Below, piece by piece: positions 6,961-20,651 of a DNA stretch of 32,000 bases. The stretch lies in contig NZ_BCZP01000033.1 in the NCBI RefSeq assembly GCF_001598795.1, positions 1 through 32,000 of the forward strand. Reading direction: 5' to 3'. Origin of the DNA: Delftia acidovorans NBRC 14950. GTDB taxonomy: Bacteria; Pseudomonadota; Gammaproteobacteria; Burkholderiales; Burkholderiaceae_C. The position numbers and the translations under genes were made by a program. Every line of letters begins with the position of its first letter. Position 1 is the first letter of the stretch. The notes below the pieces were generated by a model. The model was given only the letters and a program-made list of their open reading frames with translations, was not told the origin of the DNA and ran no database searches.

Positions 6961-8658
6961 ATGCTCTCCGTCAAACAGGAACTGCTCGCGGCTCTGGCCG
7001 GCGAGCTTGAAACTTTGTCGCCCGGCGCCGGTGCCCGTGCCGCTTTTGAATCCCCCAAGGTGGCTGCGCATGGCGATTTCGCCTGCACCGCCGCCATGCA
7101 GCTGGCCAAGCCGCTCAAGCTCAACCCGCGTGCGCTGGGCGAGCAGCTCAAGGCTGCGCTGGAGGCCACGCCGTCCTTCCAGCGTTGGGTCGATGCCATC
7201 GAGATCGCCGGCCCCGGCTTTCTGAACATCCGCCTCAAGCCCGCCGCCAAGCAGCAAATCATCCGCGAAGTGCTGGAGCAGGCCGAGAAGTTCGGCTGGC
7301 TGGCCGACCGTGGCGCAAAGATGCTGGTCGAGTTCGTCTCCGCCAACCCCACCGGCCCGCTGCACGTAGGCCATGGCCGCCAGGCCGCGCTGGGCGATGC
7401 CATCTGCAACCTCTATGCCACCCAGGGCTGGGGCGTGCACCGCGAGTTCTACTACAACGACGCGGGCGTGCAGATCGACACGCTGACCAAGAGCACGCAG
7501 CTGCGTGCCAAGGGCTTCAAGCCCGGTGACGAATGCTGGCCCATCGATCCCGAGAATCCGGCAAGCAAGGCCTTCTACAACGGCTCCTACATCCAGGACA
7601 TCGCCGACGACTTCCTGGCCTGCAAGACCGTCAAGGCCGATGACCGCGAATTCACGGCCAACGGCGATGTCGAGGACTACGACAACATCCGCCAGTTCGC
7701 CGTCGCCTATCTGCGCAACGAGCAGGACAAGGACCTGCAGGCCTTCAACCTGCACTTTGACGAGTACTACCTCGAATCCAGCCTCTACACCAACGGCTAT
7801 GTCGAGGACGCGGTGCAGCGCCTGATCGCGGGCGGACATACCTACGAACTCGACGGCGCGCTCTGGCTCAAGTCCACCGACTACGGTGACGACAAGGACC
7901 GCGTGATGCGCAAGCAGGACGGCAACTACACGTACTTCGTGCCCGATGTCGCCTACCACATCCAGAAATTCAAGCGCGGCTACTCCAAGGTCGTCAACAT
8001 CCAGGGCACGGACCACCACGGCACCATCGCGCGCGTGCGCGCTGGCCTGCAGGCCGCCGACGTGGGCATCCCTGCCGGCTATCCCGACTATGTGCTGCAC
8101 ACCATGGTGCGCGTGGTGCGCGGCGGCGAGGAAGTCAAGATCAGCAAGCGCGCCGGCTCCTACGTCACGCTGCGCGACCTGATCGAATGGACCAGCAAGG
8201 ATGCGGTGCGTTTCTTCCTGCTGTCCCGCAAGCCCGACACTGAGTACACCTTCGACGTGGACCTGGCCGTGGCCCAGAACAACGACAACCCCGTGTACTA
8301 CGTGCAGTACGCCCATGCGCGCATCTGCTCGGTGCTGGCCGCCTGGGGGGGTGACGCGGCCACGCTCAAGGACGTGGACCTGTCGGCGCTGGAAGGCCCG
8401 CAGGCCCAGGCGCTGATGCTGCAGCTGGCCAAGTACCCGGCCATGCTGACCTCGGCCGCAGAAGGCAATGCGCCGCACGACGTGACGTTCTACCTGCGCG
8501 AACTGGCCTCGCTGTACCACAGCTACTACGACGCGGAACGCATCCTGGTGGACGACGAAAAGGTCAAGCTCGCCCGCCTGGCGCTGATCTCGGCCACGCG
8601 CCAGGTATTGCACAATGGCCTGGCAGTGCTGGGCGTCTCGGCCCCGCAACGCATGTAA
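6961..8658 (+). CDS. argS: Arginine--tRNA ligase
   Basis: 565 aa. Class I motifs [11 protein letters not shown] (HIGH-like) and KISKRAG (KMSK-like), with full-length ArgRS similarity. Confidence 0.96.
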
Positions 8659-8678
8659 CTTCGAGCGACAAGCGATCT

Positions 8679-9368
8679 ATGAAGACACAGCAACGTGGGG
8701 GCACCGTCATCGGTCTCATCATCGGCATGATCGTCGGGCTGGCAGCAGCCCTGGCCGTCGCCGTCTATGTGACCAAGGTGCCCGTGCCCTTTCTCTCCAA
8801 GGGCGGCAAGACGGCCGACCAGGACGCGGCCGAGGCCCAGCGCAACAAGAACTGGGACCCCAACGCGCCGCTGCAGGGCAAGAACCCGGCGCCGCCACCA
8901 CCGGCCGCCGTCACGCCCAGCCTCCCCGGCAGCACCGCACCAACCGCCCCCACCCCGCCCGCCGTGGCCGGAGGCGTGACTCCACCACCCGCGCCCGTGG
9001 ACCCGGCCAAGCCGCCCGCCAAGCCCGAAACCAAGGCCGATGGCAAGAGCTCGGCCGATCCGCTGGGTGACCTGGTCAAGTCGCGCTCCGCCGCCGCCGA
9101 GAAGGCGGAAAAGGCAGAAAAGGCCGACGCCGCCTTCAACTACTTCGTGCAGGCCGGTGCCTTCCGCAGCCAGGGCGATGCCGACGCGCAGCGCGCCAAG
9201 CTGGCCATGCTGGGTTGGGAGGCGCGCGTGAGCGAGCGCGAGCAAAACGGCATCACCATCTTCCGCGTGCGTGTGGGTCCGTTCACCAAGCGCGACGATG
9301 CCGAGCAGCTCAAGCAAAAGCTCGATGGCGCCGGGGTCGAGTCCACGCTGGTGCGCGCCGCACGCTGA
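8679..9368 (+). CDS. SPOR domain-containing protein (septal peptidoglycan binding)
   Basis: N-terminal TM helix, Pro/Ala-rich linker, and a C-terminal SPOR-like segment FVQAGAFRSQGDADAQRAKLAMLG...FRVRVGPF. Confidence 0.85.
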   Translation: MKTQQRGGTVIGLIIGMIVGLAAALAVAVYVTKVPVPFLSKGGKTADQDAAEAQRNKNWDPNAPLQGKNPAPPPPAAVTPSLPGSTAPTAPTPPAVAGGVTPPPAPVDPAKPPAKPETKADGKSSADPLGDLVKSRSAAAEKAEKAEKADAAFNYFVQAGAFRSQGDADAQRAKLAMLGWEARVSEREQNGITIFRVRVGPFTKRDDAEQLKQKLDGAGVESTLVRAAR

Positions 9369-9449
9369 AAGCGCGTTGCAACAAGAGCGCTGAACTTTTG
9401 GCGGGCCCCTGCCTCCTAACCTGCAGCATTGAACGAGGAGTTTGTTTTG

Positions 9450-10100
9450 ATGAATCGCCGCGACTTTTCCCTGGCTGCCTCGGCAGCCGCTGCCAGCGCA
9501 CTGACGCTGGGCACTTCCGCCGCCCAGGCCCAGGCCGCAGCGCCCAAGGAGGGCAAGGACTACATCAAGCTGGCCAAGCCCGCACCCACCAGCGCCGGCG
9601 CCGGCAAGGTCGAGGTGGTCGAGTTCTTCTGGTACAGCTGCCCGCACTGCAATGCGTTCGAGCCCACCTTTGCCGCCTGGAAGAACCAGGCCCCGGCCGA
9701 CGTGGTCGTGCACCGCGTGCCCGTGGCCTTCAACGCCAGCTTCGTGCCCCAGCAAAAGCTCTACTACGCCTTCGAAGGCATGAACCTGCTGGACACCATG
9801 CATGCGCGCGCCTTCCACGCCATCCATGTGGAACGCAACCGCCTGGCCAAGGACGACGAGATCTTCGCCTGGGTCGGCAAGCAGGGCGTGGACGTGGCCA
9901 AGTTCAAGGAGGTCTACAACTCCTTCAGCGTCTCCAACCAGGTTCGCAAGGCCACCCAGCTGCAGCAGGACTATGACGTGGAAGGCGTGCCGGCCATGGG
10001 CGTGGCGGGCCGTTACTACACCGACGGCACCAAGGCCGGCAACATGACCAATGTGCTGCGCGTGGTCGATCAGCTGATCGCCACCAGCCGCAAGGGCTGA
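9450..10100 (+). CDS. dsbA: Thiol:disulfide interchange protein DsbA
   Basis: Signal peptide MNRRDFSLAASAAAASALTLG and active site FFWYSCPHCN (CPHC). Start trimmed to ATG 9450. Confidence 0.9.
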   Translation: MNRRDFSLAASAAAASALTLGTSAAQAQAAAPKEGKDYIKLAKPAPTSAGAGKVEVVEFFWYSCPHCNAFEPTFAAWKNQAPADVVVHRVPVAFNASFVPQQKLYYAFEGMNLLDTMHARAFHAIHVERNRLAKDDEIFAWVGKQGVDVAKFKEVYNSFSVSNQVRKATQLQQDYDVEGVPAMGVAGRYYTDGTKAGNMTNVLRVVDQLIATSRKG

Positions 10101-10126
10101 GGCCCGGGCCTCGGCCCAGCCAAGCC

Positions 10127-10162
10127 GCGACAGGCCCGCCATTGCGCGGGCCTGTCGCTTTT
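10127..10162 (+). terminator. Rho-independent terminator of dsbA
   Basis: Perfect 13-bp stem GCGACAGGCCCGC (10127-10139) / GCGGGCCTGTCGC (10146-10158), 6-nt loop, T4 at 10159-10162. Confidence 0.85.
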
Positions 10163-10271
10163 GGAAACCTCTTTTTGTGCCTTTGTGTCAGCGCTTTCCG
10201 TGCGCGTTGAAAGACGCCAGGAACGGTTGCGCGCGACACCCCCTACAATGGATGCAAGAAGCGTGCCCTCC

Positions 10272-10934
10272 ATGAAACAACGACTTTCCTCCCTCCTGCT
10301 CGCCGCCGCCCTGGCGGCTTTCGCCGGTATGGCCCAGGCCGAAAAGGCCGACAGCACCAAGCCCATGAACATCGAGGCTGATGCGCTGCGCCATGACGAA
10401 CTCAAGCAGACCAGCGTCTTCACTGGCAACGTGGTGATGACCAAGGGCACCATCGTGCTGCGCGGCGCCCAGCTCGATGTGCGGCAAGACCCTGAAGGCT
10501 TTCAGTACGGCGTGGTGACGGCCGAGGCGGGCAAGCGTGCCTTCTTCCGCCAAAAGCGCGATACCGTGCCGGGCCAGCCCGAGGAATTCGTGGAAGGCGA
10601 GGGCGAGGTCATCGAATACGACGGCAAGGCCGACCTCGTGAAGTTCATCCGCCGCGGCGAACTGCGCCGCTATCGCGGCGGCCAGCTCAGCGACGAGATC
10701 ACCGGCTCCATCATCGTCTACAACAACCTCACCGACGTGTTCACCGTTGACGGGCAAAAGACCAGCGGTGGCCAGCCCAGCTCCACGGCCGGCCAGGGCG
10801 GACGCGTGCGCGCCGTGCTGGCACCCAAGGAAGGCACGCCGGGCTCGCAGCCGCGCGCCCCCGCAGCGGGCACGCCGGGCACGTCCCTGCAGCCCAGCAA
10901 CAGCCTGGACAGCCTCGGCGGTACCAAGCGATGA
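10272..10934 (+). CDS. lptA: LPS transport periplasmic protein LptA
   Basis: Signal peptide [23 protein letters not shown] followed by an OstA-like segment ([29 protein letters not shown]). ATGA overlap with lptB. Confidence 0.85.
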
Positions 10935-11719
10935 GCGGGCAAGCCGCAGCCCCGGCTGCCACTGCACGCGCCGACCAGGGCAGCAGCCTGCAGGCACGCC
11001 ATCTGGCCAAGTCCTACGGCAGCCGCAAGGTGGTCAAGGACGTGTCGCTTTCCGTGAAAAAGGGCGAGGTCGTGGGCCTGCTGGGCCCCAACGGCGCGGG
11101 CAAGACCACCTCGTTCTACATGATCGTGGGCCTGGTGCGCAGCGACGGCGGCGACATCTTCATCGACGGCCAGGCCGTGGGCAATATGCCCATCCACCAG
11201 CGCTCGCGCCTGGGCCTATCCTACCTGCCGCAAGAGGCATCGATCTTCCGCAAGCTCAGCGTCGAGGACAACGTGCGCGCCGTGCTGGAGCTGCAAAGGG
11301 ACGAGCAGGGCCGGCCGCTGGCGCGCAGCGTCATCGAGGAGCGCCTGACGGCGCTGCTGCAGGAATTGCGCGTGGACCATCTGCGCGCATCGCCTGCGCT
11401 GGCGCTGTCGGGCGGCGAACGCCGCCGCGTCGAGATCGCGCGCGCCCTGGCCACTCAGCCGCGCTTCATCCTGCTGGACGAGCCCTTTGCCGGCATCGAC
11501 CCCATCGCCGTGATCGAGATCCAGCGCATCATCGGCTTTCTCAAGGCGCGCGGCATCGGCGTGCTGATCACCGACCACAACGTGCGCGAGACGCTGGGCA
11601 TCTGCGACCATGCCTTCATCATCAGCGACGGCCACGTGCTGGCCCAGGGCACACCCGAGGAGATCGTGGACAACGCCGAAGTGCGGCGTGTCTACCTCGG
11701 CGAACACTTCCGGATGTAG
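10931..11719 (+). CDS. lptB: LPS export ABC transporter ATP-binding protein LptB
   Basis: Walker [10 protein letters not shown], signature LSGGERRR, Walker B FILLDEP. Conserved position between lptA and rpoN. Confidence 0.95.
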
Positions 11720-11773
11720 CGCCATGCCCTGCCTGGCCCGTCTGCGAGACTGTCTGCGCGAAGGAGCTGCCGC

Positions 11774-13390
11774 TTGAAGCCCGGTCTGTCGCTGCGCGTC
11801 TCCCAGCATCTTTCGCTTACTCCCCAGCTGCAGCAGTCGATACAGCTGCTGCAGCTGTCCACGCTGGAGCTGGCGCAGGAAGTGGAGCAGATGCTGGGCG
11901 ACAACCCCTTCCTGGAGCTGGCGAACGAGGAGGGCGATCACGATGCGGCTGCCGGCACCCGCGAGCCTGCCGCGCCCGGCGCCGAGGCCACGGAGTCCTT
12001 CCAGGAAAGCCGCGCAGACCAGCCTTCGGCGGCGGTGGAGTGGGAGCCCTCGTCGGACGCATCCTCCGGCGATGCCGTGGAGACTTCCGGCACGGCCGAG
12101 TCCCTGAGCTGGGAAGGCGACGGCCAGACCACCTCGGGCAACGATGACCGCGACTGGGGCAGCGATGCGCCCTCCAGCCGCACGCGCGGGCAGGGCGAGG
12201 AAGACGAGGCCGATGCCACCGAACTGGCTCGCAGCGCCGAAAGCCTGACCGACCACCTGCACCGTCAGGCCCTGAGCCTGCGCCTGGGCGAGGTGGACCG
12301 CGCCGCACTGCGCTTTCTGATCGAGAACCTCAACGATGACGGCTACCTGGAAGACCCGCTCGACGAGCTGGCACAGGGCCTGGCGGGCGACGATCTGGAG
12401 GAGTGCGAGGAACTGGTGCACCGCTTCACCGTGGCGCTGCGCCTGCTGCAAAGCCTGGAGCCCGTGGGCGTGGGCGCGCGCGACCTGGCCGAATGCCTGA
12501 CGCTGCAACTGCGCGACCATCTGGCCGATGCCGAGCGCGAAGGCAACGGCAGTGCCGAGGACGAAGACCGGCAGGCCGTGCTGCGCACCGCGCTGGACAT
12601 CTGCGCCCAGCCCATGGACCTGCTTGCGCGGCGCGACCTGCGCAAGCTCGCCAGCCTGTGCGGTGCGCGCGAGGAGCGGCTGCGCGAGGCGCTGGTGCTG
12701 ATCACCCGACTGGAGCCACGCCCGGGCCGGCGCTTTGCCGACGTGCAGCGCCAGATCGTCGTGCCCGACGTCATCGTGCGCCCCGTGCGCAGCGGCGCGG
12801 GCCGCATGGACTTCAGCGTGCAGCTCAACCCCGACGTCATGCCCAAGCTGCGCGTGCACGACATCTATGCCAGCGCGCTGCGCAGCCACAGGGGCAGCGA
12901 AGGCCATGCAGCGCTGCAGCAGCGGCTGCAGGAGGCGCGCTGGTTCATCAAGAACATCCAGCAGCGCTTCGACACCATCCTGCGCGTGTCGCAGGCCATC
13001 GTGGAGCGCCAGAAGAATTTCTTCGTGCATGGCGAGCTGGCCATGCGCCCGCTGGTGCTGCGCGACATTGCCGATGCGCTGGGCCTGCATGAATCCACCA
13101 TCAGCCGCGTGACCACGGCCAAGTACATGGCCACGCCGCAGGGCACCTACGAGCTCAAGTACTTCTTCGGCTCGGGCCTGGGCACCGAGGCCGGTGGCAA
13201 TGCCTCCAGCACTGCCGTGCGCGCGCTGATCAAGCAGTTCGTCGCGGCCGAAGATCCCAAGAAGCCGCTGTCGGACAACCAGCTCGCCGACATGCTCAAG
13301 GAGCAGGGTATCGAATGCGCGCGGCGCACGGTGGCCAAGTACCGCGAGCTGCTCAAGATCCCGCCGACCACGCTGCGCAAGGCGCTGTAG
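11774..13390 (+). CDS. rpoN: RNA polymerase sigma-54 factor
   Basis: N-terminus (M)KPGLSLRVSQHLSLTPQLQQSIQLLQLSTLEL matches RpoN region I. RpoN box ARRTVAKYR near the C-terminus. TTG start with AGGAG 7 nt upstream. Confidence 0.96.
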   Translation: MKPGLSLRVSQHLSLTPQLQQSIQLLQLSTLELAQEVEQMLGDNPFLELANEEGDHDAAAGTREPAAPGAEATESFQESRADQPSAAVEWEPSSDASSGDAVETSGTAESLSWEGDGQTTSGNDDRDWGSDAPSSRTRGQGEEDEADATELARSAESLTDHLHRQALSLRLGEVDRAALRFLIENLNDDGYLEDPLDELAQGLAGDDLEECEELVHRFTVALRLLQSLEPVGVGARDLAECLTLQLRDHLADAEREGNGSAEDEDRQAVLRTALDICAQPMDLLARRDLRKLASLCGAREERLREALVLITRLEPRPGRRFADVQRQIVVPDVIVRPVRSGAGRMDFSVQLNPDVMPKLRVHDIYASALRSHRGSEGHAALQQRLQEARWFIKNIQQRFDTILRVSQAIVERQKNFFVHGELAMRPLVLRDIADALGLHESTISRVTTAKYMATPQGTYELKYFFGSGLGTEAGGNASSTAVRALIKQFVAAEDPKKPLSDNQLADMLKEQGIECARRTVAKYRELLKIPPTTLRKAL

Positions 13391-13428
13391 CCCAGGCGCG
13401 CAAACTCGCCATCGCGCCACCGTGGTGT

Positions 13429-15036
13429 CTATGGCGTTCGACCGGCCACGGCATCCCACTTCAAGCCGAATTTCAGCAGGTACTTGCGCAGGCGGTCGGC
13501 ATCGTTGACCACGCTGCGCTGGGTGCGTGACTGGTCGAACAGACGGCGCCCCGCATCGGACAGCGAAGGTGACTCCCGGCACACGCGCAGCACCGCTTCG
13601 AGCTGCATGCGGTCGAACAGATCCAGCGGCTCCAGCACTTCGGCAGACAGCAGGCTTTGCAGGCTGGCGCCGGCCGGTTGCACGGCATCGCCTCTTTGCC
13701 ACAGCCACTTCAGGCGCTGGATCTCGGCATCGACCAGGGCCGTGGAGATGCGCCCCCCGTCGGCCAGCGTCGCCAGGCGCGTCATGCTGGCCGACAGGTC
13801 GCGGAAGTTGCCGCTCCACAGCGCCTCGGGCGAGCGCGCAAAGCGCAGATAGCGCTCGCGGGCCTCTACGTTGAAGCGCACCATCTGGCCAGTCTCGTCG
13901 GCCGAGCGCGCGAGCAGGTGGTCCATGTTGGGTTCTATGTCCTCGGGGCGCCCGGCCAGGCCCGGCAGCGCGTAGGACCACAGGTTGATGCGCGCGAACA
14001 AATCCTCGCGAAAGCGCCCCTGCGCCACGTCGATGCGCAGGTCGCGGTGCGTGCCGGCGACCAGCTGGAAGTCGCTGCTGACCTCGCGGTCGCTGCCCAT
14101 GGGATAGAAGCGCCTTTCCTCCACCGCCTTGAGCAGCATGGCCTGTTCGTCCAGCCCCAGCTCGCCGATTTCGTCCAGGAACAGCACGCCCTGGTGCGCG
14201 CTGCGCAGCAGGCCGGCGCGGTCGGCCGCAGCGCCCGTGAACGCCCCCTTCTTGTGGCCGAACAGCACCGAAGCCGCTCCATCGCCGCGCAGCGTGGCGC
14301 AATTGACCTCCACGAAGTCGCCCTGCACCTGGTGCCTGGCCTTCTTCAACTCGTACATGCGCCGCGCCAGATGCGACTTGCCCGCGCCCGTGGGACCCGT
14401 GAGCAGGATGGGCGCGCGCGAGCGCACGGCCACGCGCTCGATCTCGTCGATCAGCGCGTTGAACCCGGCATTGCGCGTGGCGATGCCGCTCTTGAGAAAT
14501 TGCACGGCCTCGCTCTGCTCGGCGCCGAAGCGCTGGGCGATCACGTCGTAGCGCGACAGGTCCAGGTCGATCAGCGCATAGCTGCCCGGGTCGCCCATGC
14601 GCTGGCGCCGGGGCGGCGAGGTCTGGGCCAGCACGCCGGGAATGCGGCGCGACTCCACCAGCAGGAACAGGCAGATCTGTGCCACGTGCGTGCCCGTGGT
14701 GATGTGCGTCCAGTACTCCTCGCGCTCGGGGTCGAAGCGGTAGGCCTGCGTCCAGTCGAACAGCCGCGCATAGACCTCGCCGAAATCCCAGGGATCGGCA
14801 ATGTCCATGGGCACGAGGTTCACCTGGGTCTCGGGCGATGCCGTGGCGATGTCGCCCTGCAGCAGCTGCGCCAGGGCCAGATGGGGCGGCGTGTAGAGCA
14901 GCTCCAGCCGCTCCACCACCAGATCCTCGTGCTGCATGAGGGAGAGGGTCGGCCGCCATTTTTCCCAGCGCCCCGCGCCCCTGCCGGAGTCCAGCTGCGT
15001 ACCCAGAAAGCCGATGACGACCTTTTTCTTTTCCAT
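13429..15036 (-). CDS. rtcR: Sigma-54-dependent transcriptional activator RtcR (CARF + AAA+ + HTH)
   Basis: 535 aa. The N-terminal ~185 aa are RtcR/CARF-like (MEKKKVVIGFLGTQLD...). Walker A GPTGAGKS and the sigma54-contact motif GAFTGA are present. Divergent from a sigma54 promoter and an rtcB/rtcA operon. Confidence 0.93.
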   Translation of the reverse strand: MEKKKVVIGFLGTQLDSGRGAGRWEKWRPTLSLMQHEDLVVERLELLYTPPHLALAQLLQGDIATASPETQVNLVPMDIADPWDFGEVYARLFDWTQAYRFDPEREEYWTHITTGTHVAQICLFLLVESRRIPGVLAQTSPPRRQRMGDPGSYALIDLDLSRYDVIAQRFGAEQSEAVQFLKSGIATRNAGFNALIDEIERVAVRSRAPILLTGPTGAGKSHLARRMYELKKARHQVQGDFVEVNCATLRGDGAASVLFGHKKGAFTGAAADRAGLLRSAHQGVLFLDEIGELGLDEQAMLLKAVEERRFYPMGSDREVSSDFQLVAGTHRDLRIDVAQGRFREDLFARINLWSYALPGLAGRPEDIEPNMDHLLARSADETGQMVRFNVEARERYLRFARSPEALWSGNFRDLSASMTRLATLADGGRISTALVDAEIQRLKWLWQRGDAVQPAGASLQSLLSAEVLEPLDLFDRMQLEAVLRVCRESPSLSDAGRRLFDQSRTQRSVVNDADRLRKYLLKFGLKWDAVAGRTP

Positions 15037-15048
15037 GTTTCTGTCTAG

Positions 15049-15142
15049 TTGAATAGCTGAAATTCTAGTTTCTTTGGATCAAATACGAATTCAAGAAAAG
15101 TGTGATTTGAGATTTATTCAAATAAATCAATGGGTTGAAGAA
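15049..15142. promoter_or_regulatory. AT-rich upstream activating region with four TTGAAKA motifs (candidate RtcR sites; also holds the rtcR promoter)
   Basis: TTGAATAG (15049-15056, +). GAATTCAA (15087-15094), which reads TTGAATTC on the minus strand. TTATTCAA (15114-15121), which reads TTGAATAA on the minus strand. TTGAAGAA (15135-15142, +). Near-palindrome ATTTATT-CA-AATAAAT at about 15112-15127. Confidence 0.4.
15125..15137 (+). promoter_or_regulatory. IHF binding site (exact consensus match)
   Basis: AATCAATGGGTTG fits WATCAANNNNTTR exactly. It sits about 30 bp upstream of the -24 element, the usual place for IHF at sigma54 promoters. Confidence 0.6.
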
Positions 15143-15165
15143 TTGTTTGGCGCCTGAGGCCAGGC

Positions 15166-15181
15166 TGGCACGCATCTCGCA
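15166..15181 (+). promoter_or_regulatory. Sigma-54 (-24/-12) promoter of the rtc operon
   Basis: TGGCACGCATCTCGCA versus consensus TGGCACG-N4-TTGCW. GG and GC are at the correct 10-nt spacing, with one deviation (TCGC for TTGC). Expected TSS near 15191. Confidence 0.8.
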
Positions 15182-15320
15182 ATAACCAAGGCATCCAGTG
15201 CAGGCGGTGACCGCTCACAGGCCGGGGTTGGGGCAAAGGCCCGCCCCGCCGGTGCTGGAAGTCCGGGCCCTCAGGGGCTTGTCGATTTCCCGCATGCCGC
15301 ACGCCGCAAGCGCTGGGTAA

Positions 15321-15382
15321 CGGCAAGGTTGTGGAAACCGTCTCGCAAGGGACGCCTGGTTCGACTCCAGGCTTGCCAGCCA
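15321..15382 (+). ncRNA. tRNA-like module A (mini tRNA mimic ending in encoded GCCA)
   Basis: Acceptor-like stem 15322-15327 GGCAAG / 15372-15377 CTTGCC (15321 C opposite 15378 A). T-arm CCTGG (15355-59) / TTCGACT / CCAGG (15367-71). Short stem GTCTC/GGGAC capped by GCAA (15340-15353). Small GTT/AAC hairpin with a GUGGA loop. 3' tail G-CCA at 15379-15382. Confidence 0.45.
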
Positions 15383-15448
15383 CTGGTAGCTCAGTCTGGT
15401 AGAGCACCCTCGCAAGAGGACTGTCGCAGGTTCGATTCCTGTCCACTC
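15383..15448 (+). ncRNA. tRNA-like module B (Y-RNA/YrlA-style tRNA mimic; not a decoding tRNA)
   Basis: TA-GCTC-AGTCTGGTA-GAGC (15387-15405) is a textbook U8-A9 + D-arm. GCAGG-TTCGATT-CCTGT (15426-15442) is a textbook T-arm, with a 5-nt variable region CTGTC. The anticodon arm is replaced by CCTC-GCAA-GAGG (15408-15419, GNRA tetraloop). Only a 3-bp acceptor-like pairing is available (TGG 15384-86 / CCA 15443-45). Confidence 0.65.
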
Positions 15449-15450
15449 TT

Positions 15451-15489
15451 CCGGCCGTAAGGCCGGGCTATTGAAACGGTCGAAAGACC
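15451..15489 (+). ncRNA. Two further GNRA-capped hairpins in the rtc leader
   Basis: CCGGCC-GTAA-GGCCGG (15451-15466) and GGTC-GAAA-GACC (15478-15489). With modules A and B this makes four GNRA tetraloop hairpins within about 150 nt. Confidence 0.45.
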
Positions 15490-15733
15490 ACCCGCCGAAC
15501 GCGGGAGGTGGCCACCGGGTTGCGATGCAGCCCAAGGCCCCCACCCGTCAGCGGCGGCGGCTGTGCCAGGTCCCGGCACGGTCCGCGCCCGCAGCCAGCC
15601 ACGCTGCAACCTGTTTCCAGGGTTGCCGCCACGGCGCACTGCAAGGCCCGGGCCGTGCCCCCTGGAACCCCGCCGCTGCTGTAACGGCACCCCTATTGAT
15701 TGCGGCGAAGACGCCGAACGAGGAGAAGAAGAA

Positions 15734-16873
15734 ATGCTGAAGATCCAACGCATCACCATCAAGAAGAACGAACGCGCCCTGCTGCTGCGCAATGGCGATT
15801 TCGAGCGCGTGCTGCACAGCGGCCGGCACTGGCTGTTTGCCGGCACCGACCAGTTGCGCGTGGAAACCTTTGCCCTGGAGCAGCCCGCCTTCACGCACGG
15901 CCTGGCCGACTACCTGATGGCCCAGGAGCCCGCCGTGGTGGCCGCCGAATTCCTGCGTGTGGAACTGTCCGAGACCGAGGCGGGCCTGCGCAGCGAAAAC
16001 GGCGTGCTGGTCGAGATCCTGCCGCCCGGCACGCGCCGCCTGTACTGGAAGGGACTGGTGGATGTGAGCGTGCAGGTGGTCGACCTGCAGGCCGGCGCCG
16101 AGCTGCCCGCCGCCCTGGCAGCGCGCCTGACCCAGACGCAGCTGCGCCAGCGCAGCGTGTCCGGCCTCAACGGCGTGCTGCAGGTGCAGGTGCTCGCAGG
16201 CCAGTGCGCGCTGCTGACCATCGACGGAAAGGTGGACCGCCTGCTGCAGGCCGGCAGCCATGCGTTCTGGAAGTTCGGCCGCAGCATTGCCGTGGAGCTG
16301 GTGGACCTGCGCCTGCAGGCCGTCGAGGTCTCGGGCCAGGACATCATGACCCGCGACAAGGTCAGCCTGCGCCTGAACCTGAGCGCCACCTATCGCCACA
16401 CCGAGGTTCTGCGCGCCTTTGCCCAGCTGCAAAAGCCTGCCGAGCACCTGTACCGCGAACTGCAGTTCGCACTGCGCGCCGCCGTGGGCACCCGCACGCT
16501 TGATGAGCTGCTGGAGAACAAGACGGTGATCGATGACGTGGTGACCGCGCACATGGCGGCCAAGCTGCAGCCCTTCGGCATGGTGGTGGAGAGTGTGGGC
16601 GTGAAGGACATCGTGCTGCCCGGCGAGATGAAGGCCATCCTGACCCAGGTGGTGCAGGCCGAAAAGCAGGCCCAGGCCAACGTGATCCGCCGCCGCGAGG
16701 AAACGGCCGCCACGCGCTCGCTGCTCAACACGGCCAAGGTCATGGAGGACAACCCCGTGGCCCTGCGCATGAAGGAGCTGGAGACGCTGGAGCGCGTGGC
16801 CGAGCGCATCGACAAGATCTCCGTGTTCGGCGGGCTGGATCAGGTGCTCAACGGGCTGGTGAAGATGCGTTGA
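15734..16873 (+). CDS. SPFH/band-7 (slipin-like) protein with an N-terminal extension and no TM segment
   Basis: ATG 15734 preceded by GAGGAG. The C-terminal ~230 aa are SPFH-like (QDIMTRDKVSLRLNLSATYR..., VGVKDIVLPGEMKAILTQVVQAEKQAQANV). First CDS of the sigma54-driven operon. Confidence 0.85.
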   Translation: MLKIQRITIKKNERALLLRNGDFERVLHSGRHWLFAGTDQLRVETFALEQPAFTHGLADYLMAQEPAVVAAEFLRVELSETEAGLRSENGVLVEILPPGTRRLYWKGLVDVSVQVVDLQAGAELPAALAARLTQTQLRQRSVSGLNGVLQVQVLAGQCALLTIDGKVDRLLQAGSHAFWKFGRSIAVELVDLRLQAVEVSGQDIMTRDKVSLRLNLSATYRHTEVLRAFAQLQKPAEHLYRELQFALRAAVGTRTLDELLENKTVIDDVVTAHMAAKLQPFGMVVESVGVKDIVLPGEMKAILTQVVQAEKQAQANVIRRREETAATRSLLNTAKVMEDNPVALRMKELETLERVAERIDKISVFGGLDQVLNGLVKMR

Positions 16874-16929
16874 CCGGCAGGCTGGTCGGGACACAACGGA
16901 CAACGAAGAAACAAAAGAGAGGTACGGCC

Positions 16930-17427
16930 ATGGCCGCATTCGAAGAACTATGGAGCTATGAGGTGGGCAAGGCGGGCTGGGCGACGTTGAAGTTCAGCAC
17001 GCCCGAGGAGGACCTGGTGTGTGCCGTGTCCTACCTGCATGATTCGCTGGGTGATCTGGCCGCCATGGCGCTGGCCTTGGCCAAGGGCGCGCACCGCGCT
17101 GCCGCCGTGTTCATGGACGAGCCCGGCGAAGTGCACCTGAGCATGGAGGGTGACCGCGACACCCTTTCCTACGAGCTGCGGCAGTACGCGGACTGGGCCA
17201 GCTGGGGCATCACCGCCATGGATGACTATGAAGTGCTGGCCCGTGGGCAGGTGGCCCGCGAGGACGTGGTGCGCAGCGTGTACCGCGTGCTGGACGGTAT
17301 TTATTGCGGCATGGGTGTAGAGGAATACAGAAAGCGCTGGCTGGAGCATGAATTCCCGCTGCGGGACTATCAAAGCCTGGGCAGCGCCATCCGCAAGCGG
17401 GACCTGTCTCGCCTGATGCGTGGATGA
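16930..17427 (+). CDS. Hypothetical protein (165 aa, acidic, no recognisable domain)
   Basis: ATG 16930 with AGAGAGG upstream. Codon usage in line with neighbouring genes. Sits tightly between the SPFH gene and rtcB. Confidence 0.7.
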   Translation: MAAFEELWSYEVGKAGWATLKFSTPEEDLVCAVSYLHDSLGDLAAMALALAKGAHRAAAVFMDEPGEVHLSMEGDRDTLSYELRQYADWASWGITAMDDYEVLARGQVAREDVVRSVYRVLDGIYCGMGVEEYRKRWLEHEFPLRDYQSLGSAIRKRDLSRLMRG

Positions 17428-17486
17428 GCCGCGCGGCAGCAAGACCTAAACAAGACGAACAGACAAGAAGACTGAAGGACAACGCA

Positions 17487-18704
17487 ATGAACTACCTGCA
17501 ACACAACGTGGAAAACGGCGTCCCCATCAAGATGTGGACCAAGGGTGTGCCCGTCGAGGACGAGGCGCGCAAGCAGCTGGAGAACGCCGCGCGCCTGCCC
17601 GTGGTGTTCAAGCATGTCGCGGCCATGCCCGATGTGCACCTGGGCATAGGCGCCACCGTGGGCTCGGTGATCCCGACCATCAAGGCCATCATCCCGGCGG
17701 CCGTGGGCGTGGACATCGGCTGCGGAATGATGGCCGCCAAGACCACGCTGCGCGCCGAGGACCTGCCCGACAACCTGGGCCCGCTGCGCTCGGCGATAGA
17801 GCAGGCCGTGCCGCATGGCTCGGTGCCGCGCCACCGGGGCCGTGATCCCGGCAGCTGGGAAAACCCGCCCGTGTCGGTGGACCAGGTCTGGGCCACGCTG
17901 GCCGATGAGTTCGACCTGCTGTGCGAGCTGCATCCACGCCTGGCCAACACCAACAACCGCAAGCACCTGGGAACGCTGGGCAGCGGCAACCACTTCATCG
18001 AGATCTGCCTGGACGAGGCGGGCTTCGTGTGGTTCATGCTGCACTCGGGCTCGCGCGGCGTGGGCAATGCCATCGGCACCCATTTCATCGAGCTGGCCAA
18101 GAAGGATGCAGAACTCCATCAGCGCAACCTGCCCGACAAGGATCTGGCCTATTTCGAGGAAGGGGCCCGCTACTTTGGCGACTATGTGCGCGGCGTGTCC
18201 TGGGCGCAGAAGTTCGCCATGCGCAACCGCGAGGTGATGATGGCCAACCTCATCGCCACGGTGCGCAAGGTGATCGCCAAGCCCTTCGAGTCGCATGTGG
18301 AGGCGGTGAACTGCCACCACAACTACGTGCAGCAGGAGCGCCATTTCGGGCAGGACGTGTTCATCACCCGCAAGGGCGCGGTGAGCGCGCGGCGCGGCGA
18401 GCTGGGCATCATCCCGGGCAGCATGGGCGCGCGCAGCTACATCGTGCGCGGCCTGGGCAACCCGGAGAGCTTCGAGAGCTGCAGCCACGGTGCGGGCCGC
18501 GTGATGAGCCGGACCAAGGCCAAGAAGATGTTCAGCGTGGAGGACCACATCAAGGCCACCGAGGGCGTGGAATGCCGCAAGGATGCGAATGTGGTGGACG
18601 AGATTCCCATGGCCTACAAGGACATCGATGCGGTCATGGCCGCGCAGCAGGATCTGGTCGAGGTGGTGCACACCCTGAAGCAAGTGGTGTGCGTGAAAGG
18701 GTGA
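17487..18704 (+). CDS. rtcB: RNA-splicing ligase RtcB (3'-phosphate/5'-OH RNA ligase)
   Basis: 405 aa. MNYLQHNVENGVPIKMWTKGVPVEDEARKQL... followed by MPDVHLGIGATVG, GCGMMA, GSGNHFIE, HSGSRG, NCHHNY and SCSHGAGR motifs typical of RtcB. Confidence 0.96.
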   Translation: MNYLQHNVENGVPIKMWTKGVPVEDEARKQLENAARLPVVFKHVAAMPDVHLGIGATVGSVIPTIKAIIPAAVGVDIGCGMMAAKTTLRAEDLPDNLGPLRSAIEQAVPHGSVPRHRGRDPGSWENPPVSVDQVWATLADEFDLLCELHPRLANTNNRKHLGTLGSGNHFIEICLDEAGFVWFMLHSGSRGVGNAIGTHFIELAKKDAELHQRNLPDKDLAYFEEGARYFGDYVRGVSWAQKFAMRNREVMMANLIATVRKVIAKPFESHVEAVNCHHNYVQQERHFGQDVFITRKGAVSARRGELGIIPGSMGARSYIVRGLGNPESFESCSHGAGRVMSRTKAKKMFSVEDHIKATEGVECRKDANVVDEIPMAYKDIDAVMAAQQDLVEVVHTLKQVVCVKG

Positions 18705-18706
18705 GT

Positions 18707-18756
18707 GGATGAGGGCCCCGGGCTCTCATCCTCCAGAACAGAAAGCAGGATGAGAG
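18707..18756 (+). promoter_or_regulatory. Three-arm alternative RNA pairing overlapping the SD of the nucleotidyltransferase gene
   Basis: GGATGAGGG (18707-18715), CTCTCATCC (18723-18731), GGATGAGAG (18748-18756). The middle arm pairs perfectly (9 bp) with the third arm. The third arm overlaps the AGGA SD (18747-50) and ends 1 nt before ATG 18758. The middle arm can also pair with the first arm, which starts 3 nt after the rtcB stop. Confidence 0.4.
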
Positions 18757-18757
18757 C

Positions 18758-19579
18758 ATGAGGGAAGAGAAGGTATTGAGCGCGCATCCGGTCTCCGACG
18801 CCATGCGCGCCACGGTGCTGGCCAACCTGGTCGAGGTGGAGCGCAGGCACGAGGTCACGGTGCTGTTTGCCTGCGAGTCGGGCAGCCGCGGCTGGGGCTT
18901 TGCCTCGCCCGACAGCGACTATGACGTGCGCTTCATCTATGTCCACCGCCTGCCCTGGTATCTGACCGTGGCGCCGGGCCGCGATGTCATAGAGCAGCCG
19001 CTCAGCGGCGAGCTCGATGTCAGCGGCTGGGAGCTGCGCAAGGCGCTGGGGCTGCTGCGCGCCTCCAACCCCACGCTGCTTGAATGGCTGCGCTCGCCCG
19101 TGGTCTACCGGCAGGAGCAGCCCTGGGCCGAGCGCCTGCATCTGCTGGCCGAGCAGGGCTTTTCGCCGGTGCGCGGCTACCACCACTACGTGGCCATGGC
19201 GCGCAAGAACCTGCGCGCCCACCTGCAGAGCGATGTCGTGCGCTACAAGAAATACTTCTACGTGCTGCGCCCCTTGCTGGCCGCGCGCTGGATACGCGAG
19301 GGGCGCGGTGCGCCGCCCATGCGCTTTGCACAGCTGGCGGCGGGCACGCTGGAGGATGCAGGCCTGCTGGCCGAGCTCAACGAGCTGCTGGAGCTCAAGA
19401 TGCGCCTGGGCGAGGCCGCCAAGGGGCCGCGCCGGGTGCGCGTCCATGATTTCCTGGAGCGCGAGCTGGCCCATGCCATGGCCCATGCGCCGGATCCGGG
19501 GTACCAGGCCGATGCGGCGCCGCTGGACCGCTATCTGCGGGATGCCGTGGCGCGCTTTGGCGGCAATTGGCGGCAATGA
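18758..19579 (+). CDS. Pol-beta-fold nucleotidyltransferase (RNA-repair-associated predicted NTase family)
   Basis: 273 aa. ACESGSRGWGFASPDSDYDVRF fits the hG[GS]-x9-13-DxD nucleotidyltransferase signature. Located between rtcB and rtcA. Confidence 0.8.
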   Translation: MREEKVLSAHPVSDAMRATVLANLVEVERRHEVTVLFACESGSRGWGFASPDSDYDVRFIYVHRLPWYLTVAPGRDVIEQPLSGELDVSGWELRKALGLLRASNPTLLEWLRSPVVYRQEQPWAERLHLLAEQGFSPVRGYHHYVAMARKNLRAHLQSDVVRYKKYFYVLRPLLAARWIREGRGAPPMRFAQLAAGTLEDAGLLAELNELLELKMRLGEAAKGPRRVRVHDFLERELAHAMAHAPDPGYQADAAPLDRYLRDAVARFGGNWRQ

Positions 19580-19592
19580 ATGAAAGAGAAAA

Positions 19593-20651
19593 ATGAAAGT
19601 GATCGAGATCGACGGCTCCGCCGGGGAGGGCGGAGGCCAGATGCTGCGCAGCGCGCTGGCGCTGTCCATGTGCACGGGCCAGCCCTTTGCCATGCAGCGC
19701 ATCCGTGCCGGGCGCGCCAAGCCGGGCCTGATGCGCCAGCACCTGGCCTGCGTCAATGCCGCCGCCGAAATCTGCGGCGCGCAGATGCAGGGCGCCGAGA
19801 TGAATTCCCAGGCGCTGCAATTTGCGCCGGGGCCGGTGCGTGCGGGCGAGTACCGCTTCGTGATCGCCTCGGCGGGCAGTTGCACCCTGCTGCTGCAGAC
19901 GCTGTGGCCCGCGCTGATGCTGGCCAATGGCGAAAGCCGCCTGACCCTGGGCGGCGGCACCCACAACCCGGCCGCGCCGCCCTTCCACTTCCTGGAGCGC
20001 AGCTATGCGCCGCTGCTGCACAGGCTGGGCGCCCGCTGCGAACTGCGGCTGCGCCGGCTGGGCTTTTATCCGGCCGGTGGCGGCGAGATGGACGTGACGA
20101 TCACGCCGGCAACCAACGGGCTGGTGCCTTTCGATATCACCGAACGCGGCGCGCCCGTGGCCAGCCATGCCGAATGCTTTGCGCCCGCGCTGCCACGCGC
20201 GGTGGCCCAGCGCGAACTGGACCATCTGGGCGAGGCCCTGGGCTGGTCTGGCGAGCAGCTGCAGGTGGCTGCCGTGCGCCAGAACGAGGGGCCGGGCAAC
20301 GCGCTGCTGGCCACGCTGGCCTATGAGCACCTGAGCGAAGTGTTCACGCAGTTCGGCATGAAGGGCGTCAGCGCCGAAAAGGTGGCGCATGACCTGGCGC
20401 GCGAGGTGCGCCGCCACCAGGGCAGCCGGGCCGCGCTGGGCCCGTACCTGGCCGACCAATGGGCCCTGCCGCTGGCGCTGGCCGTCTGGCGCAGCGGGCG
20501 CGCTGCCAGCTACACCTGCACGGAACTGACGCCGCATGCTCGCAGCAATTTCGAGGTGATCGAGCGCTTTGTGCCTGTGCGCTTTGTGCCCGTGCGCCTT
20601 ATCACGGACGCAACGGGCGACGGCTGGCGTGTTTCGCTCTCGCCAGCCTGA
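19593..20651 (+). CDS. rtcA: RNA 3'-terminal phosphate cyclase
   Basis: 352 aa. MKVIEIDGSAGEGGGQMLRSALALSM...RAGRAKPGLMRQHL matches the RtcA N-terminus, including the conserved His region. Confidence 0.95.
   Translation: MKVIEIDGSAGEGGGQMLRSALALSMCTGQPFAMQRIRAGRAKPGLMRQHLACVNAAAEICGAQMQGAEMNSQALQFAPGPVRAGEYRFVIASAGSCTLLLQTLWPALMLANGESRLTLGGGTHNPAAPPFHFLERSYAPLLHRLGARCELRLRRLGFYPAGGGEMDVTITPATNGLVPFDITERGAPVASHAECFAPALPRAVAQRELDHLGEALGWSGEQLQVAAVRQNEGPGNALLATLAYEHLSEVFTQFGMKGVSAEKVAHDLAREVRRHQGSRAALGPYLADQWALPLALAVWRSGRAASYTCTELTPHARSNFEVIERFVPVRFVPVRLITDATGDGWRVSLSPA
20566..20595 (+). repeat. 15-bp in-frame tandem duplication inside rtcA
   Basis: GCTTTGTGCCTGTGC (20566-20580) followed by GCTTTGTGCCCGTGC (20581-20595), one mismatch. 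Encodes RFVPV-RFVPV. Confidence 0.9.

Follow-up and report, generated by a model that had tools for sequence, protein, structure and literature searches.

A probable sigma54/RtcR-controlled RNA-repair operon of Delftia acidovorans combining an SPFH protein, a tRNA-like leader RNA and RtcB

The rtc locus of Delftia acidovorans NBRC 14950 is probably an RNA-repair operon under sigma54/RtcR control, of the 'Band-7/SPFH + b7a-tRNA + RtcB' class. In the window, i.e., the whole 32-kb stretch of DNA analysed, six genes (rtcR, SPFH, orf165, rtcB, rlaP and rtcA) occupy the expected positions; Pfam and NCBIfam agree with the gene identities and coordinates of the original prediction. rtcR lies on the minus strand and faces the IHF consensus, the sigma54 promoter, a structured leader, SPFH, orf165, rtcB, rlaP and rtcA, in this order:

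13429..15036, minus strand: rtcR (PF06956, E 1.1e-80; PF00158, E 1.5e-48; NF038308, 824 bits against a cutoff of 650)
15125..15137, plus strand: predicted IHF consensus site AATCAATGGGTTG, the sole match to WATCAANNNNTTR in the window (0.11 expected)
15166..15181, plus strand: sigma54 -24/-12 promoter motif TGGCACGCATCTCGCA, the sole match in 32 kb (0.15 expected)
15201..15696, plus strand: conserved structured leader RNA of about 490 nt, delimited by GCTCACAGG and GCTGTAACGGC in 69/80 related loci
15322..15382, plus strand: tRNA-like domain 1 (RNAalifold and pair counts)
15384..15445, plus strand: tRNA-like domain 2, 'b7a-tRNA' (Rfam tRNA, 29.9 bits against a threshold of 29)
15734..16873, plus strand: SPFH/Band-7 protein gene (PF01145, E 2e-31; PDB stomatin, E 1e-17)
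16930..17427, plus strand: orf165 (no Pfam, NCBIfam or PDB sequence match)
17487..18704, plus strand: rtcB (PF01139, E 1.9e-126, full-length match)
18758..19579, plus strand: rlaP, RNA-ligase-associated Pol-beta nucleotidyltransferase (PF10127, E 3.7e-98)
19593..20651, plus strand: rtcA, RNA 3'-terminal phosphate cyclase (PF01137, E 4.6e-74; NF003246, 398 bits against a cutoff of 352)

The module had been presented as newly recognised, but its component set, RtcB with Band-7/SPFH (an MVP homolog), b7a-tRNA and RlaP, already belongs to Burroughs & Aravind (NAR 2016), as relayed in citing papers (10.1101/312249, PMC12776372, PMC13404743). According to these accounts, the 2016 systems share with Delftia rtcR, a tRNA-like RNA, a Band-7/MVP-like protein, RtcB, RlaP and RtcA in the same order, as well as the proposed logic, in which a scaffold protein and its cognate tRNA-like ncRNA assist the ligase. 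Compared with the systems so described, the Delftia locus has the additional orf165, and its b7a-tRNA, barely at the tRNA threshold, carries a GCAA tetraloop in place of the anticodon loop. An example of this class is the rtc locus of Pseudomonas aeruginosa PA14, in which the SPFH gene PaFlo8 is embedded (PMC13086221), with RlaP (PMC12776372).

The five genes downstream of the promoter are as tightly spaced as originally measured, with gaps of 56, 59, 53 and 13 nt from SPFH to rtcA. Each start is preceded by a purine-rich RBS, and from the promoter to the end of rtcA, plus-strand terminator-like sites do not exceed chance. The short gaps, the RBSs and the lack of a terminator are consistent with a single operon, short of proof.

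The rtcR product combines a CARF-type N-terminal RtcR domain with a sigma54-interaction AAA+ domain and is encoded divergently from the operon. The IHF site is placed in the AT-rich stretch separating rtcR from the promoter. Related loci linked to rtcR keep the GGCAC and GC elements of this promoter in the corresponding position. The proposed RtcR/IHF/sigma54 regulatory logic is supported: both sites are unique in the window and the promoter is kept in relatives. By analogy with E. coli and Salmonella, RNA damage, for example tRNA fragments with 2',3'-cyclic phosphate ends, would activate the CARF domain of RtcR, which, helped by IHF bending, would open the -24/-12 promoter. Damaged tRNAs do activate RtcR (PMC7790460). 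The E. coli rtcR/rtcBA locus shares with Delftia the divergent CARF-AAA+ activator, the sigma54 promoter, the RtcB ligase and the RtcA cyclase, but lacks the leader RNA, SPFH, orf165 and RlaP.

Judged from the sequence, the transcript would start with the structured RNA and continue from SPFH to rtcA without a recognisable terminator. In this RNA, a 5' hairpin domain is accompanied by two tRNA-like domains in tandem, by two hairpins with GNRA caps and by an extended 3' stem of about 47 bp. Across 50 sequences, pairing at its 128 pairs amounts to 89.5%, compared with 36-45% in slid controls; compensatory changes occur at 89 pairs, and 0/500 shuffles reach the observed values. The MFE in the window is -266.6 kcal/mol (z -5.35), and Rfam has no entry for this RNA. 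The tRNA-mimic elements of the original prediction are real, although they are not separate RNAs but domains of a single conserved structured RNA of far greater size.

Domain 1 consists of a 6-bp acceptor-like stem (15322-27/15372-78) followed by a GNRA-capped hairpin, without a D-arm, and a T-arm (15355-59/15367-71) with the loop UUCGACU and CCA after it; covariation is found at 6/6 acceptor pairs and 3/5 T-stem pairs. Its 3' tail is AGCCA in the Delftia window, with an extra G, versus ACCA in most relatives. Domain 2 possesses a 3-bp acceptor remnant, an invariant D-arm, an anticodon-like stem capped by the GCAA tetraloop, and a T-arm. In other Burkholderiales this element reaches 47-55 bits with the Rfam tRNA model, and its loop is of 7 nt with 'anticodons' that vary, whereas Delftia and Acidovorax have a GNRA tetraloop there. 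ARAGORN calls no tRNA. With its tetraloop, domain 2 cannot be a substrate of anticodon nucleases in these two genera, and a role as a scaffold or competitive binder is therefore favoured over that of a sacrificial decoy. Where papers citing Burroughs & Aravind (2016) describe the RNA, they mention only 'a tRNA-like molecule'; set against these descriptions, the present analysis adds that the element is one of two, inside a covarying RNA of about 490 nt.

The leader RNA would be excised from the transcript, like YrlA/YrlB of Salmonella. Alternatively, the region could act in cis as a leader instead of being a trans-acting ncRNA. Its tRNA-like domains would then sense or bind a factor (for example tRNA that is damaged or uncharged, RNase P/Z, or SPFH itself) and so exert control over the downstream genes through elongation, stability or translation. 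This is rather unlikely. The location of the RNA would suit such a leader: it always directly precedes SPFH, on the strand of that gene, and ends about 40 nt ahead of the RBS; no terminator intervenes before the coding genes, and loci without rtcR keep it between an HNH gene and SPFH, again on the same strand. However, the size and conservation of the region go far beyond the needs of attenuation, no alternative terminator/antiterminator pairing is evident, and the anticodon-like loop, unlike that of a specifier-type sensor, varies freely or is a tetraloop. Moreover, the analogous operon-encoded YrlA/YrlB act as stable ncRNAs (10.1101/312249).

The excised RNA may then bind the SPFH protein. 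The AF2 model of this protein, which is of moderate confidence (pLDDT 77; C-terminal helices 53-69), has an MVP-like architecture: three beta modules at the N-terminus, then an SPFH domain, and long helices at the C-terminus. Its Foldseek matches include stomatin 16-mers, HflK/C and, along the whole length, major vault protein; stomatin gives the best E-value, and major vault protein is aligned across about 465-479 columns, with a TM of about 0.45 and a large rmsd. As claimed originally, the protein appears soluble: no TM helix is predicted (maximum 19-residue hydropathy 1.41). In a sample of 80 genomes with orthologs (73-99% identity), RtcB is the next gene in 66, in many genera and in two distinct upstream contexts, which bears out the expected linkage; divergent RtcR occurs in 34, RtcA in 34 and RlaP in 22. 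About seven related loci with sufficient flanks have the leader RNA and SPFH with RtcB absent nearby, and the RNP may therefore not be strictly dedicated to the ligase.

SPFH proteins are classically membrane scaffolds. SPFH and orf165 could accordingly be passengers outside RNA repair, such as a membrane-microdomain scaffold between rtcR and rtcB, and deletion of the P. aeruginosa ortholog PaFlo8 gave no phenotype in general assays, RNA-damage conditions not being among those described (PMC13086221). Such a reading is already disfavoured and highly improbable, given the conserved RtcB adjacency, the lack of a TM segment, the dedicated conserved RNA travelling with SPFH, and syntenic operons in which SPFH is swapped for Ro60/YrlA.

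This swap is seen in two Variovorax-type operons, rtcR-SPFH-orf164-rtcB-...-rlaP-rtcA (L002) and rtcR-Ro60-YrlA-orf183-rtcB-...-rlaP-rtcA (L091), which are otherwise syntenic and differ exactly in this exchange. It directly supports, at the level of gene order, the proposal that SPFH + RNA takes the place of Ro60 + Y RNA. As predicted, Ro60 is missing here: tblastn with related Rsr found no Rsr/TROVE in the window (best E 0.54). SPFH and rsr are not mutually exclusive, since three loci (L049, L068 and L089) contain both, L049 and L089 together with bona fide YrlA (81 bits). SPFH and Ro60/YrlA are thus interchangeable yet not exclusive cassettes, and the sampled loci have either or both. The Salmonella rsr-yrlBA-rtcBA operon resembles the Delftia locus in RtcR/sigma54 control, an operon-encoded tRNA-mimicking ncRNA and a scaffold protein upstream of rtcBA, ring-shaped in Salmonella and putatively so in Delftia. 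In contrast to Salmonella, the Delftia window lacks Rsr/TROVE and a YrlA at threshold (29.4 versus 69 bits); its RNA is 4-5 times longer, with tRNA-like domains in normal order, the one of YrlA being permuted.

orf165 encodes an alpha/beta protein (AF2 pLDDT 88.9) with conserved motifs VSYLHDSL, FMDEPGE, DWASWG and HDFP. With 44 close matches and 1553 relatives by profile, it is a member of a large family without a Pfam model. Close homologs lie directly upstream of rtcB in 7/7 contexts, with SPFH, Ro60 or both; it had been regarded as part of the Ro60 replacement, which does not fit homologs staying beside rtcB where Ro60 is present. orf165 is more probably an RtcB-linked accessory, which either neutralises a toxin in the manner of an immunity protein or serves the ligase as a cofactor.

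Tentatively, an immunity-type protein could have been captured by the operon, binding and neutralising a ribonuclease toxin while RtcB mends prior damage. Distant members of the family (32-43% identity) are found in long arrays of small genes without annotation, all on one strand, beside SMI1_KNR4-family genes (L004, L085-L088). SMI1_KNR4 is the SUKH immunity-protein superfamily, and these arrays resemble immunity-gene loci. The second-best Foldseek PDB match is CdiI of Enterobacter cloacae (4ntq_B), the immunity protein that counters a toxin with 16S rRNase activity. Between SPFH and rtcB there is also a variable slot with at least five unrelated occupants across relatives, differing even between Delftia species. 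Equally tentatively, orf165 could be a cofactor of RtcB, analogous in function to archease, or an adaptor that binds RNA and sits between the scaffold RNP and the ligase. The invariable rtcB adjacency, the small, soluble, confidently folded product and its weak resemblance to PUR/MRP (Whirly-like) nucleic-acid-binding folds speak for it; archease, however, is unmatched in sequence or fold, and distant homologs also occur without any RtcB. Most SPFH-RtcB operons, other Delftia species included, lack orf165, and RtcB therefore does not generally need it.

The rtcB start at 17487 gives the E. coli-like N-terminus MNY... The RtcB family joins 3'-phosphate or 2',3'-cyclic phosphate ends to 5'-OH. 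The nucleotidyltransferase was correctly placed between ligase and cyclase; its role in an Rtc context had been called undefined, but RlaP is already characterised biochemically and adds 1-2 NMP to RNA 3'-OH ends (preprint PMC12776372). Its products end in 3'-OH and are not directly usable by RtcB, as the RlaP authors noted.

For Delftia, we infer co-transcription, RNA excision and the SPFH-RNA interaction. The SPFH protein would oligomerise as a ring or cage, like stomatin, HflK/C and MVP, and in the resulting RNP scaffold the tRNA-shaped domains would recruit or organise broken tRNAs and the enzymes that handle tRNAs. Going by family-level biochemistry, RtcA would convert 3'-phosphate to 2',3'-cyclic phosphate, RlaP would put back one or two lost 3' nucleotides, and RtcB would seal the ends. 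The eukaryotic vault (MVP cage, vault RNA and the TROVE protein TEP1) likewise partners an SPFH protein with a structured ncRNA, and some relatives of the Delftia locus also have a TROVE protein. In the models, both proteins appear to share beta repeats, an SPFH 'shoulder' and a long helix (about 470 Foldseek columns). However, the Delftia protein has three beta modules and MVP nine, a closed cage is not evidenced, the window contains neither PARP4 nor TEP1, and the RNA is unrelated to vault RNAs in sequence.

The Delftia locus is probably a damage-inducible RNA-repair operon of the type predicted in 2016. Two of its parts are less ordinary: the conserved structured RNA of about 490 bases that surrounds the tRNA mimics, and the additional, uncharacterised protein encoded by orf165.

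The ORF map and profile searches show rtcR divergent from SPFH-orf165-rtcB-rlaP-rtcA, and Pfam and NCBIfam bear out all six genes named in the original prediction, at the predicted positions and spacings. The proposed control by RtcR, an IHF site and a sigma54 promoter likewise agrees with the matched RtcR domains and with the two promoter motifs.

Features of the rtc locus (coordinates, strand, assignment)
13429-15036, minus strand: rtcR; PF06956 (RtcR N-terminal/CARF-type) and PF00158 (sigma54 AAA+) domains; NF038308 (RNA_repair_RtcR), 824 bits against a cutoff of 650
15125-15137, plus strand: candidate IHF consensus site AATCAATGGGTTG; sole match in 32 kb
15166-15181, plus strand: candidate sigma54 -24/-12 promoter TGGCACGCATCTCGCA; sole match in 32 kb, kept in relatives
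15734-16873, plus strand: SPFH/Band-7 gene; PF01145 (E 2e-31)
16930-17427, plus strand: orf165, 165 aa; no Pfam or NCBIfam match
17487-18704, plus strand: rtcB; PF01139 (E 1.9e-126)
18758-19579, plus strand: rlaP; PF10127 (E 3.7e-98, 249/249 profile positions)
19593-20651, plus strand: rtcA; PF01137, and NF003246 above cutoff

All elements of an RtcR-regulated rtcBA operon are present (divergent CARF-AAA+ RtcR, predicted -24/-12 promoter, rtcB and rtcA), and the operon is shared by D. tsuruhatensis NBRC 16741, with proteins 96-99% identical. A purine-rich RBS precedes each start, and the intergenic gaps from the SPFH gene to rtcA are 56, 59, 53 and 13 nt. Plus-strand terminator-like sites do not exceed chance from the promoter to the end of rtcA; rtcB and rtcA share a strand and are probably co-transcribed. 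For rtcB, 17487 is preferred as the start, and ATG 17424 rejected: in the longer ORF the Pfam match sets in only at residue 51, and 17487 is preceded by an RBS and gives the N-terminus MNY..., which resembles that of E. coli RtcB.

PF10127 is named for its association with RNA repair (in full, 'RlaP, RNA repair pathway DNA polymerase beta family'). The gene order rtcR-rtcB-rlaP-rtcA in P. fluorescens and P. aeruginosa is described in a preprint (PMC12776372), according to which RlaP adds one or two NMPs to the RNA 3'-OH, damaged RNAs being preferred. On the other side of the locus, lptB and rpoN (10931-13390, plus strand) adjoin rtcR in convergent orientation; the product of rpoN is sigma54 itself, and its neighbor encodes a sigma54-dependent activator. 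This adjacency is found in Delftia loci and in a Burkholderiaceae MAG (L001, L005, L006 and L036 among the numbered related loci) and is absent from Acidovorax and the remaining relatives.

The locus is a further case of the RtcB and Band-7 kind, already known and experimentally unexplored. Systems of RtcB, Band-7/SPFH and b7a-tRNA, a tRNA-like element, were predicted by Burroughs and Aravind (NAR, 2016), as summarised in a passage of 10.1101/312249, a paper on the structure of YrlA. Delftia shares with them the SPFH gene beside the ligase, a tRNA-like RNA and RlaP. A survey from 2026 on the SPFH proteins of P. aeruginosa (PMC13086221) places PaFlo8 within the rtc locus and finds its deletion to be without phenotype in general assays.

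The Band-7 system is also characterised by a homolog of MVP. The Delftia SPFH protein has no hydrophobic segment; among proteins of solved structure it is closest in sequence to stomatins, which align to residues 169-376. Its AF2 model (pLDDT 77) contains three five-stranded beta modules, the SPFH domain and long helices. In Foldseek searches, the best E-values go to stomatin 16-mers and HflK/C, aligned over ~230-280 columns, and MVP is aligned over ~465-479 columns (E 2e-11 to 1e-10) with a TM of only ~0.45. This model-based alignment seems to agree with the literature label 'MVP homolog', and formation of a ring or cage could be expected by analogy with the stomatin, HflK/C and MVP relatives. 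The eukaryotic vault is a closed cage of nine MVP repeats with TEP1/PARP4, whereas the Delftia protein has only three beta modules; TROVE or PARP genes are absent from the operon (Pfam), and no vault RNA is matched by Rfam.

The census of related loci, with one genome per species, comprises 80 SPFH-ortholog loci (73-99% identity) from Comamonadaceae and other Burkholderiales, onto which the window proteins were mapped. The expected SPFH-rtcB linkage holds, RtcB lying downstream of SPFH in 66/80 loci. A divergent RtcR and RtcA are each found in 34/80 and RlaP in 22/80; RtcR, RtcB, RlaP and RtcA occur jointly in 17/80. SPFH without a nearby RtcB is seen in about seven loci having enough flank. 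An HNH gene, the RNA and SPFH with no RtcB within 7 kb are observed in L050, L055, L057, L059, L060, L067 and L083; downstream in L050 lie genes for a 259-aa unannotated protein, a Tll0287/HAMP sensor, a Ser/Thr kinase and a STAND-LuxR regulator. There is no sign of a plasmid- or phage-borne module: the plasmid collection contains no match to the leader RNA or orf165, and viral contigs give one marginal SPFH match and no RNA motif match. In L001, the closest MAG relative (Burkholderiaceae; 8512-13829), rtcB is cut off after 85 codons, and next comes an unannotated 535-aa gene between two Phage_integrase-family genes. Apparently an insertion destroyed the ligase here but spared rtcR, the RNA, SPFH and the orf165 homolog.

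The slot between SPFH and rtcB varies from locus to locus and has at least five unrelated occupants. It is empty in 26 loci (gap of 52-167 nt) and holds a ~250-aa unannotated protein in 17, a ~280-aa unannotated protein in 13 (including Delftia sp. PS-11 and D. acidovorans MMO-42), a ClpP/SDH-protease-like protein in seven, Ro60/TROVE-vWA in two and orf165 in two of the 80. No relationship between the occupant families is detectable. A single diversifying slot family is rejected, profile-profile probabilities of orf165 against the 250-aa and 280-aa families being 0.5 and 0.2. The ClpP/SDH-type serine-protease-like protein stands directly after SPFH (L058:8196-9230 and six more loci), a pair that recalls stomatin-NfeD/STOPP operons, here in an RNA-repair setting.

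Upstream of SPFH, nearly every locus carries two GGTTCGAnTCC T-arm motifs 66-80 nt apart. RNAalifold on 27 sequences folds this region into two tandem tRNA-like domains. Domain 1 combines an acceptor-like stem of 6 bp, which covaries, with a GNRA hairpin and a T-arm; most relatives have ACCA after the T-arm, and the tail in the window is AGCCA, with one additional G. Domain 2 is made up of a short acceptor, a D-arm that is invariant, an anticodon-like stem that covaries and a T-arm, and the D, anticodon-like and T arms of the tRNA-like element are backed by covariation. In the window, domain 2 (15384-15445) scores only 29.9 bits against the Rfam tRNA model, because in Delftia and Acidovorax a tetraloop replaces the anticodon loop. 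In other Burkholderiales its loop is 7 nt long and its score 47-55 bits, and the 'anticodons' assigned there by ARAGORN differ (Ile, Val, Met, Glu). A canonical tRNA, defined by a cloverleaf with a 7-bp acceptor stem and a 7-nt anticodon loop, is ruled out for domain 2, in which the acceptor is cut to 3 bp and a GCAA tetraloop stands for the anticodon loop; ARAGORN finds no tRNA in the window.

Both domains belong to a conserved block of 432-562 nt bounded by GCTCACAGG and GCTGTAACGGC, which is present in 69/80 loci and corresponds to 15201-15696 in the window. Its consensus structure, derived from 50 aligned sequences, has 128 pairs in 22 helices and was compared with controls in which pairing partners were slid by 1-3 columns and with 500 column shuffles. 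Standard pairs are formed in 89.5% of cells (36-45% with slid partners), compensatory changes support 89 pairs (46-62) and the covariation score is 0.352 (~0.07); 0/500 shuffles match any observed measure. For the copy in the window the folding energy is -266.6 kcal/mol (z -5.35). The 'tRNA-mimic RNAs' of the original prediction are therefore real as tRNA-like domains, backed by Rfam and covariation, but are parts of one ~490-nt RNA rather than separate molecules.

Rfam 15 matches nothing in the leader RNA but the tRNA; mir-5132 and other low matches are far under their gathering scores and are attributed to chance. A YrlA-type Y RNA without Ro, defined by a permuted tRNA-like domain and a Ro-binding stem, is rejected as well, since the leader reaches only 29.4 of the 69 bits required for gathering and its domain order is different; genuine YrlA in relatives scores 74-81 bits. 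The citing literature, in its passages on the system, mentions only the tRNA-like molecule 'b7a-tRNA' and no larger RNA, which the 2016 description may itself include. The ~490-nt RNA is the most novel defensible element of the locus.

In loci without divergent rtcR (L038-L084), a ~257-aa HNH-nuclease-domain gene lies directly 5' of the RNA on the same strand, for example L041:5716-6489 (plus strand), and matches the HNH region of IscB, Cas9d and PtuB models. In several Burkholderiales, 12-18 tRNA genes, which together serve most amino acids, form an array just 5' of the HNH/RNA/SPFH unit (L041:3140-5599, 12 genes without the b7a-tRNA-like call; L049:1203-3978, 18 genes; L052; L053). The association of such an array with the SPFH-RtcB module hints at an island that serves both tRNA back-up and repair; the Delftia window contains no tRNA gene array.

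The absence of Ro60/Rsr from the window is confirmed: the operon proteins give no TROVE/vWA_Ro60 match in Pfam, and a tblastn search of all 32 kb with a related Rsr reaches a best E of 0.54. The Ro60/Rsr-Y RNA system (rsr-yrlBA-rtcBA) differs from Delftia in having a TROVE/vWA Rsr and a YrlA, for which the window remains below the gathering score. Rsr is found in 2/80 loci. In Variovorax paradoxus (L002) the order is rtcR-SPFH-orf164-rtcB-zf_Tbcl-MBL-rlaP-rtcA, and in a syntenic metagenomic relative without SPFH (L091) it is rtcR-Ro60-YrlA (74 bits)-orf183-rtcB-...-MBL-rlaP-rtcA, orf164 and orf183 being orf165 homologs. This clean swap supports the functional equivalence of SPFH and Ro60/YrlA. 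The idea that SPFH with an RNA mimic replaces Ro60 with Y RNA thus gains support from the swap, but it is an already published computational hypothesis.

The two systems also share one operon in three loci, in Albitalea terrae (L049:8167-10259; rtcR-leader RNA-SPFH-Rsr-YrlA (81 bits)-rtcB-rlaP-rtcA), in L068 and in L089 (4473-10823; rtcR-tRNA-like-SPFH-orf190-531 aa-Ro60-YrlA (81 bits)-rtcB), so that the mutual exclusivity of SPFH and rsr that had been anticipated is no rule. In L089 an orf165 homolog and a 531-aa unannotated protein accompany both scaffold systems. Variovorax-type operons (L002:9847-11453, plus strand; L091) carry a zf_Tbcl treble-clef zinc-finger protein and an MBL-fold protein between rtcB and rlaP, the latter assigned to Anti-Pycsar_Apyc1 in precomputed matches and to Lactamase_B/Lactamase_B_2 in a separate scan. 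Downstream of rtcR (L002:3399-4259, minus strand) lies a gene for a 2',5'-RNA-ligase/LigT-like protein that weakly matches LMWPc.

The protein orf165 has 44 close relatives, and a profile search of 1.8 billion representatives gives 1553 matches at E <= 1e-3, mostly stand-alone proteins of ~150 aa among the matches listed. The family comprises at least 1500 50%-identity clusters and has no Pfam model; of ten relatives searched with Pfam, nine give no match and the tenth one below cutoff (E 0.073). The profile finds nothing meaningful among PDB sequences (best E 0.73). The AF2 model is confident (pLDDT 88.9, pTM 0.84), with weak Foldseek matches in the PDB to an uncharacterised cupin-like protein, E. 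cloacae CdiI, PUR-alpha and MRP1/2 folds. Membership of the archease family is not supported: orf165 has no Pfam or NCBIfam match, and archease is not among the Foldseek PDB matches.

Two roles for orf165 appear about equally likely. It could be a cofactor or adaptor of RtcB: close homologs (>= 50% identity) stand directly 5' of rtcB in 7/7 contexts, with any scaffold. It could equally be an immunity-like anti-RNase: distant homologs (32-43% identity) are encoded in long runs of small unannotated genes on one strand, in two cases adjoining genes for SMI1_KNR4, the SUKH immunity-protein superfamily. The CdiI match reaches only E 1.3e-2 and TM 0.43-0.47, and no toxin gene is found beside orf165 in the window. 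Distant members (L004:8001-9900, L087, L090) form paralog pairs or singletons in unidirectional small-gene arrays, one of them in a 4.04-Mb genome with SusD-family neighbors.

In the proposed mechanism, RtcR and sigma54 would induce the operon, which would first yield a large structured RNA, two domains of which are shaped like tRNA. This RNA, possibly processed, would bind and work with the MVP-like SPFH protein, presumably oligomeric, as a scaffold for RtcA, RlaP and RtcB. On their presumed substrates, RtcA could cyclise the ends, RlaP restore 3' nucleotides and RtcB carry out the sealing; orf165 would be a lineage-specific accessory. A more far-reaching reading, which we consider rather unlikely, would make the ~490-nt RNA the RNA subunit of a vault-like RNP and the slot proteins anti-ribonuclease add-ons. 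In this doubtful joint scheme, an RNA class outside Rfam would use its tRNA-shaped domains to dock broken tRNAs and RtcB/RlaP/RtcA inside or on the SPFH ring, and orf165 and the other slot proteins would be strain-specific and immunity-like.

The role of bacterial MVP/Band-7 proteins in RNA repair has so far been addressed only computationally. The Delftia locus is a compact version with clearly separable parts, predicted to be inducible, in a culturable organism; with a defined promoter, a delimited RNA, a soluble SPFH protein and three enzymes, direct tests are therefore straightforward. Comparative handles beyond the single window come from the loci in which SPFH and Ro60/YrlA replace or accompany each other, from the variable slot and from the orf165 family. 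By extension, the locus bears on what vaults and tRNA-mimicking ncRNAs did ancestrally.
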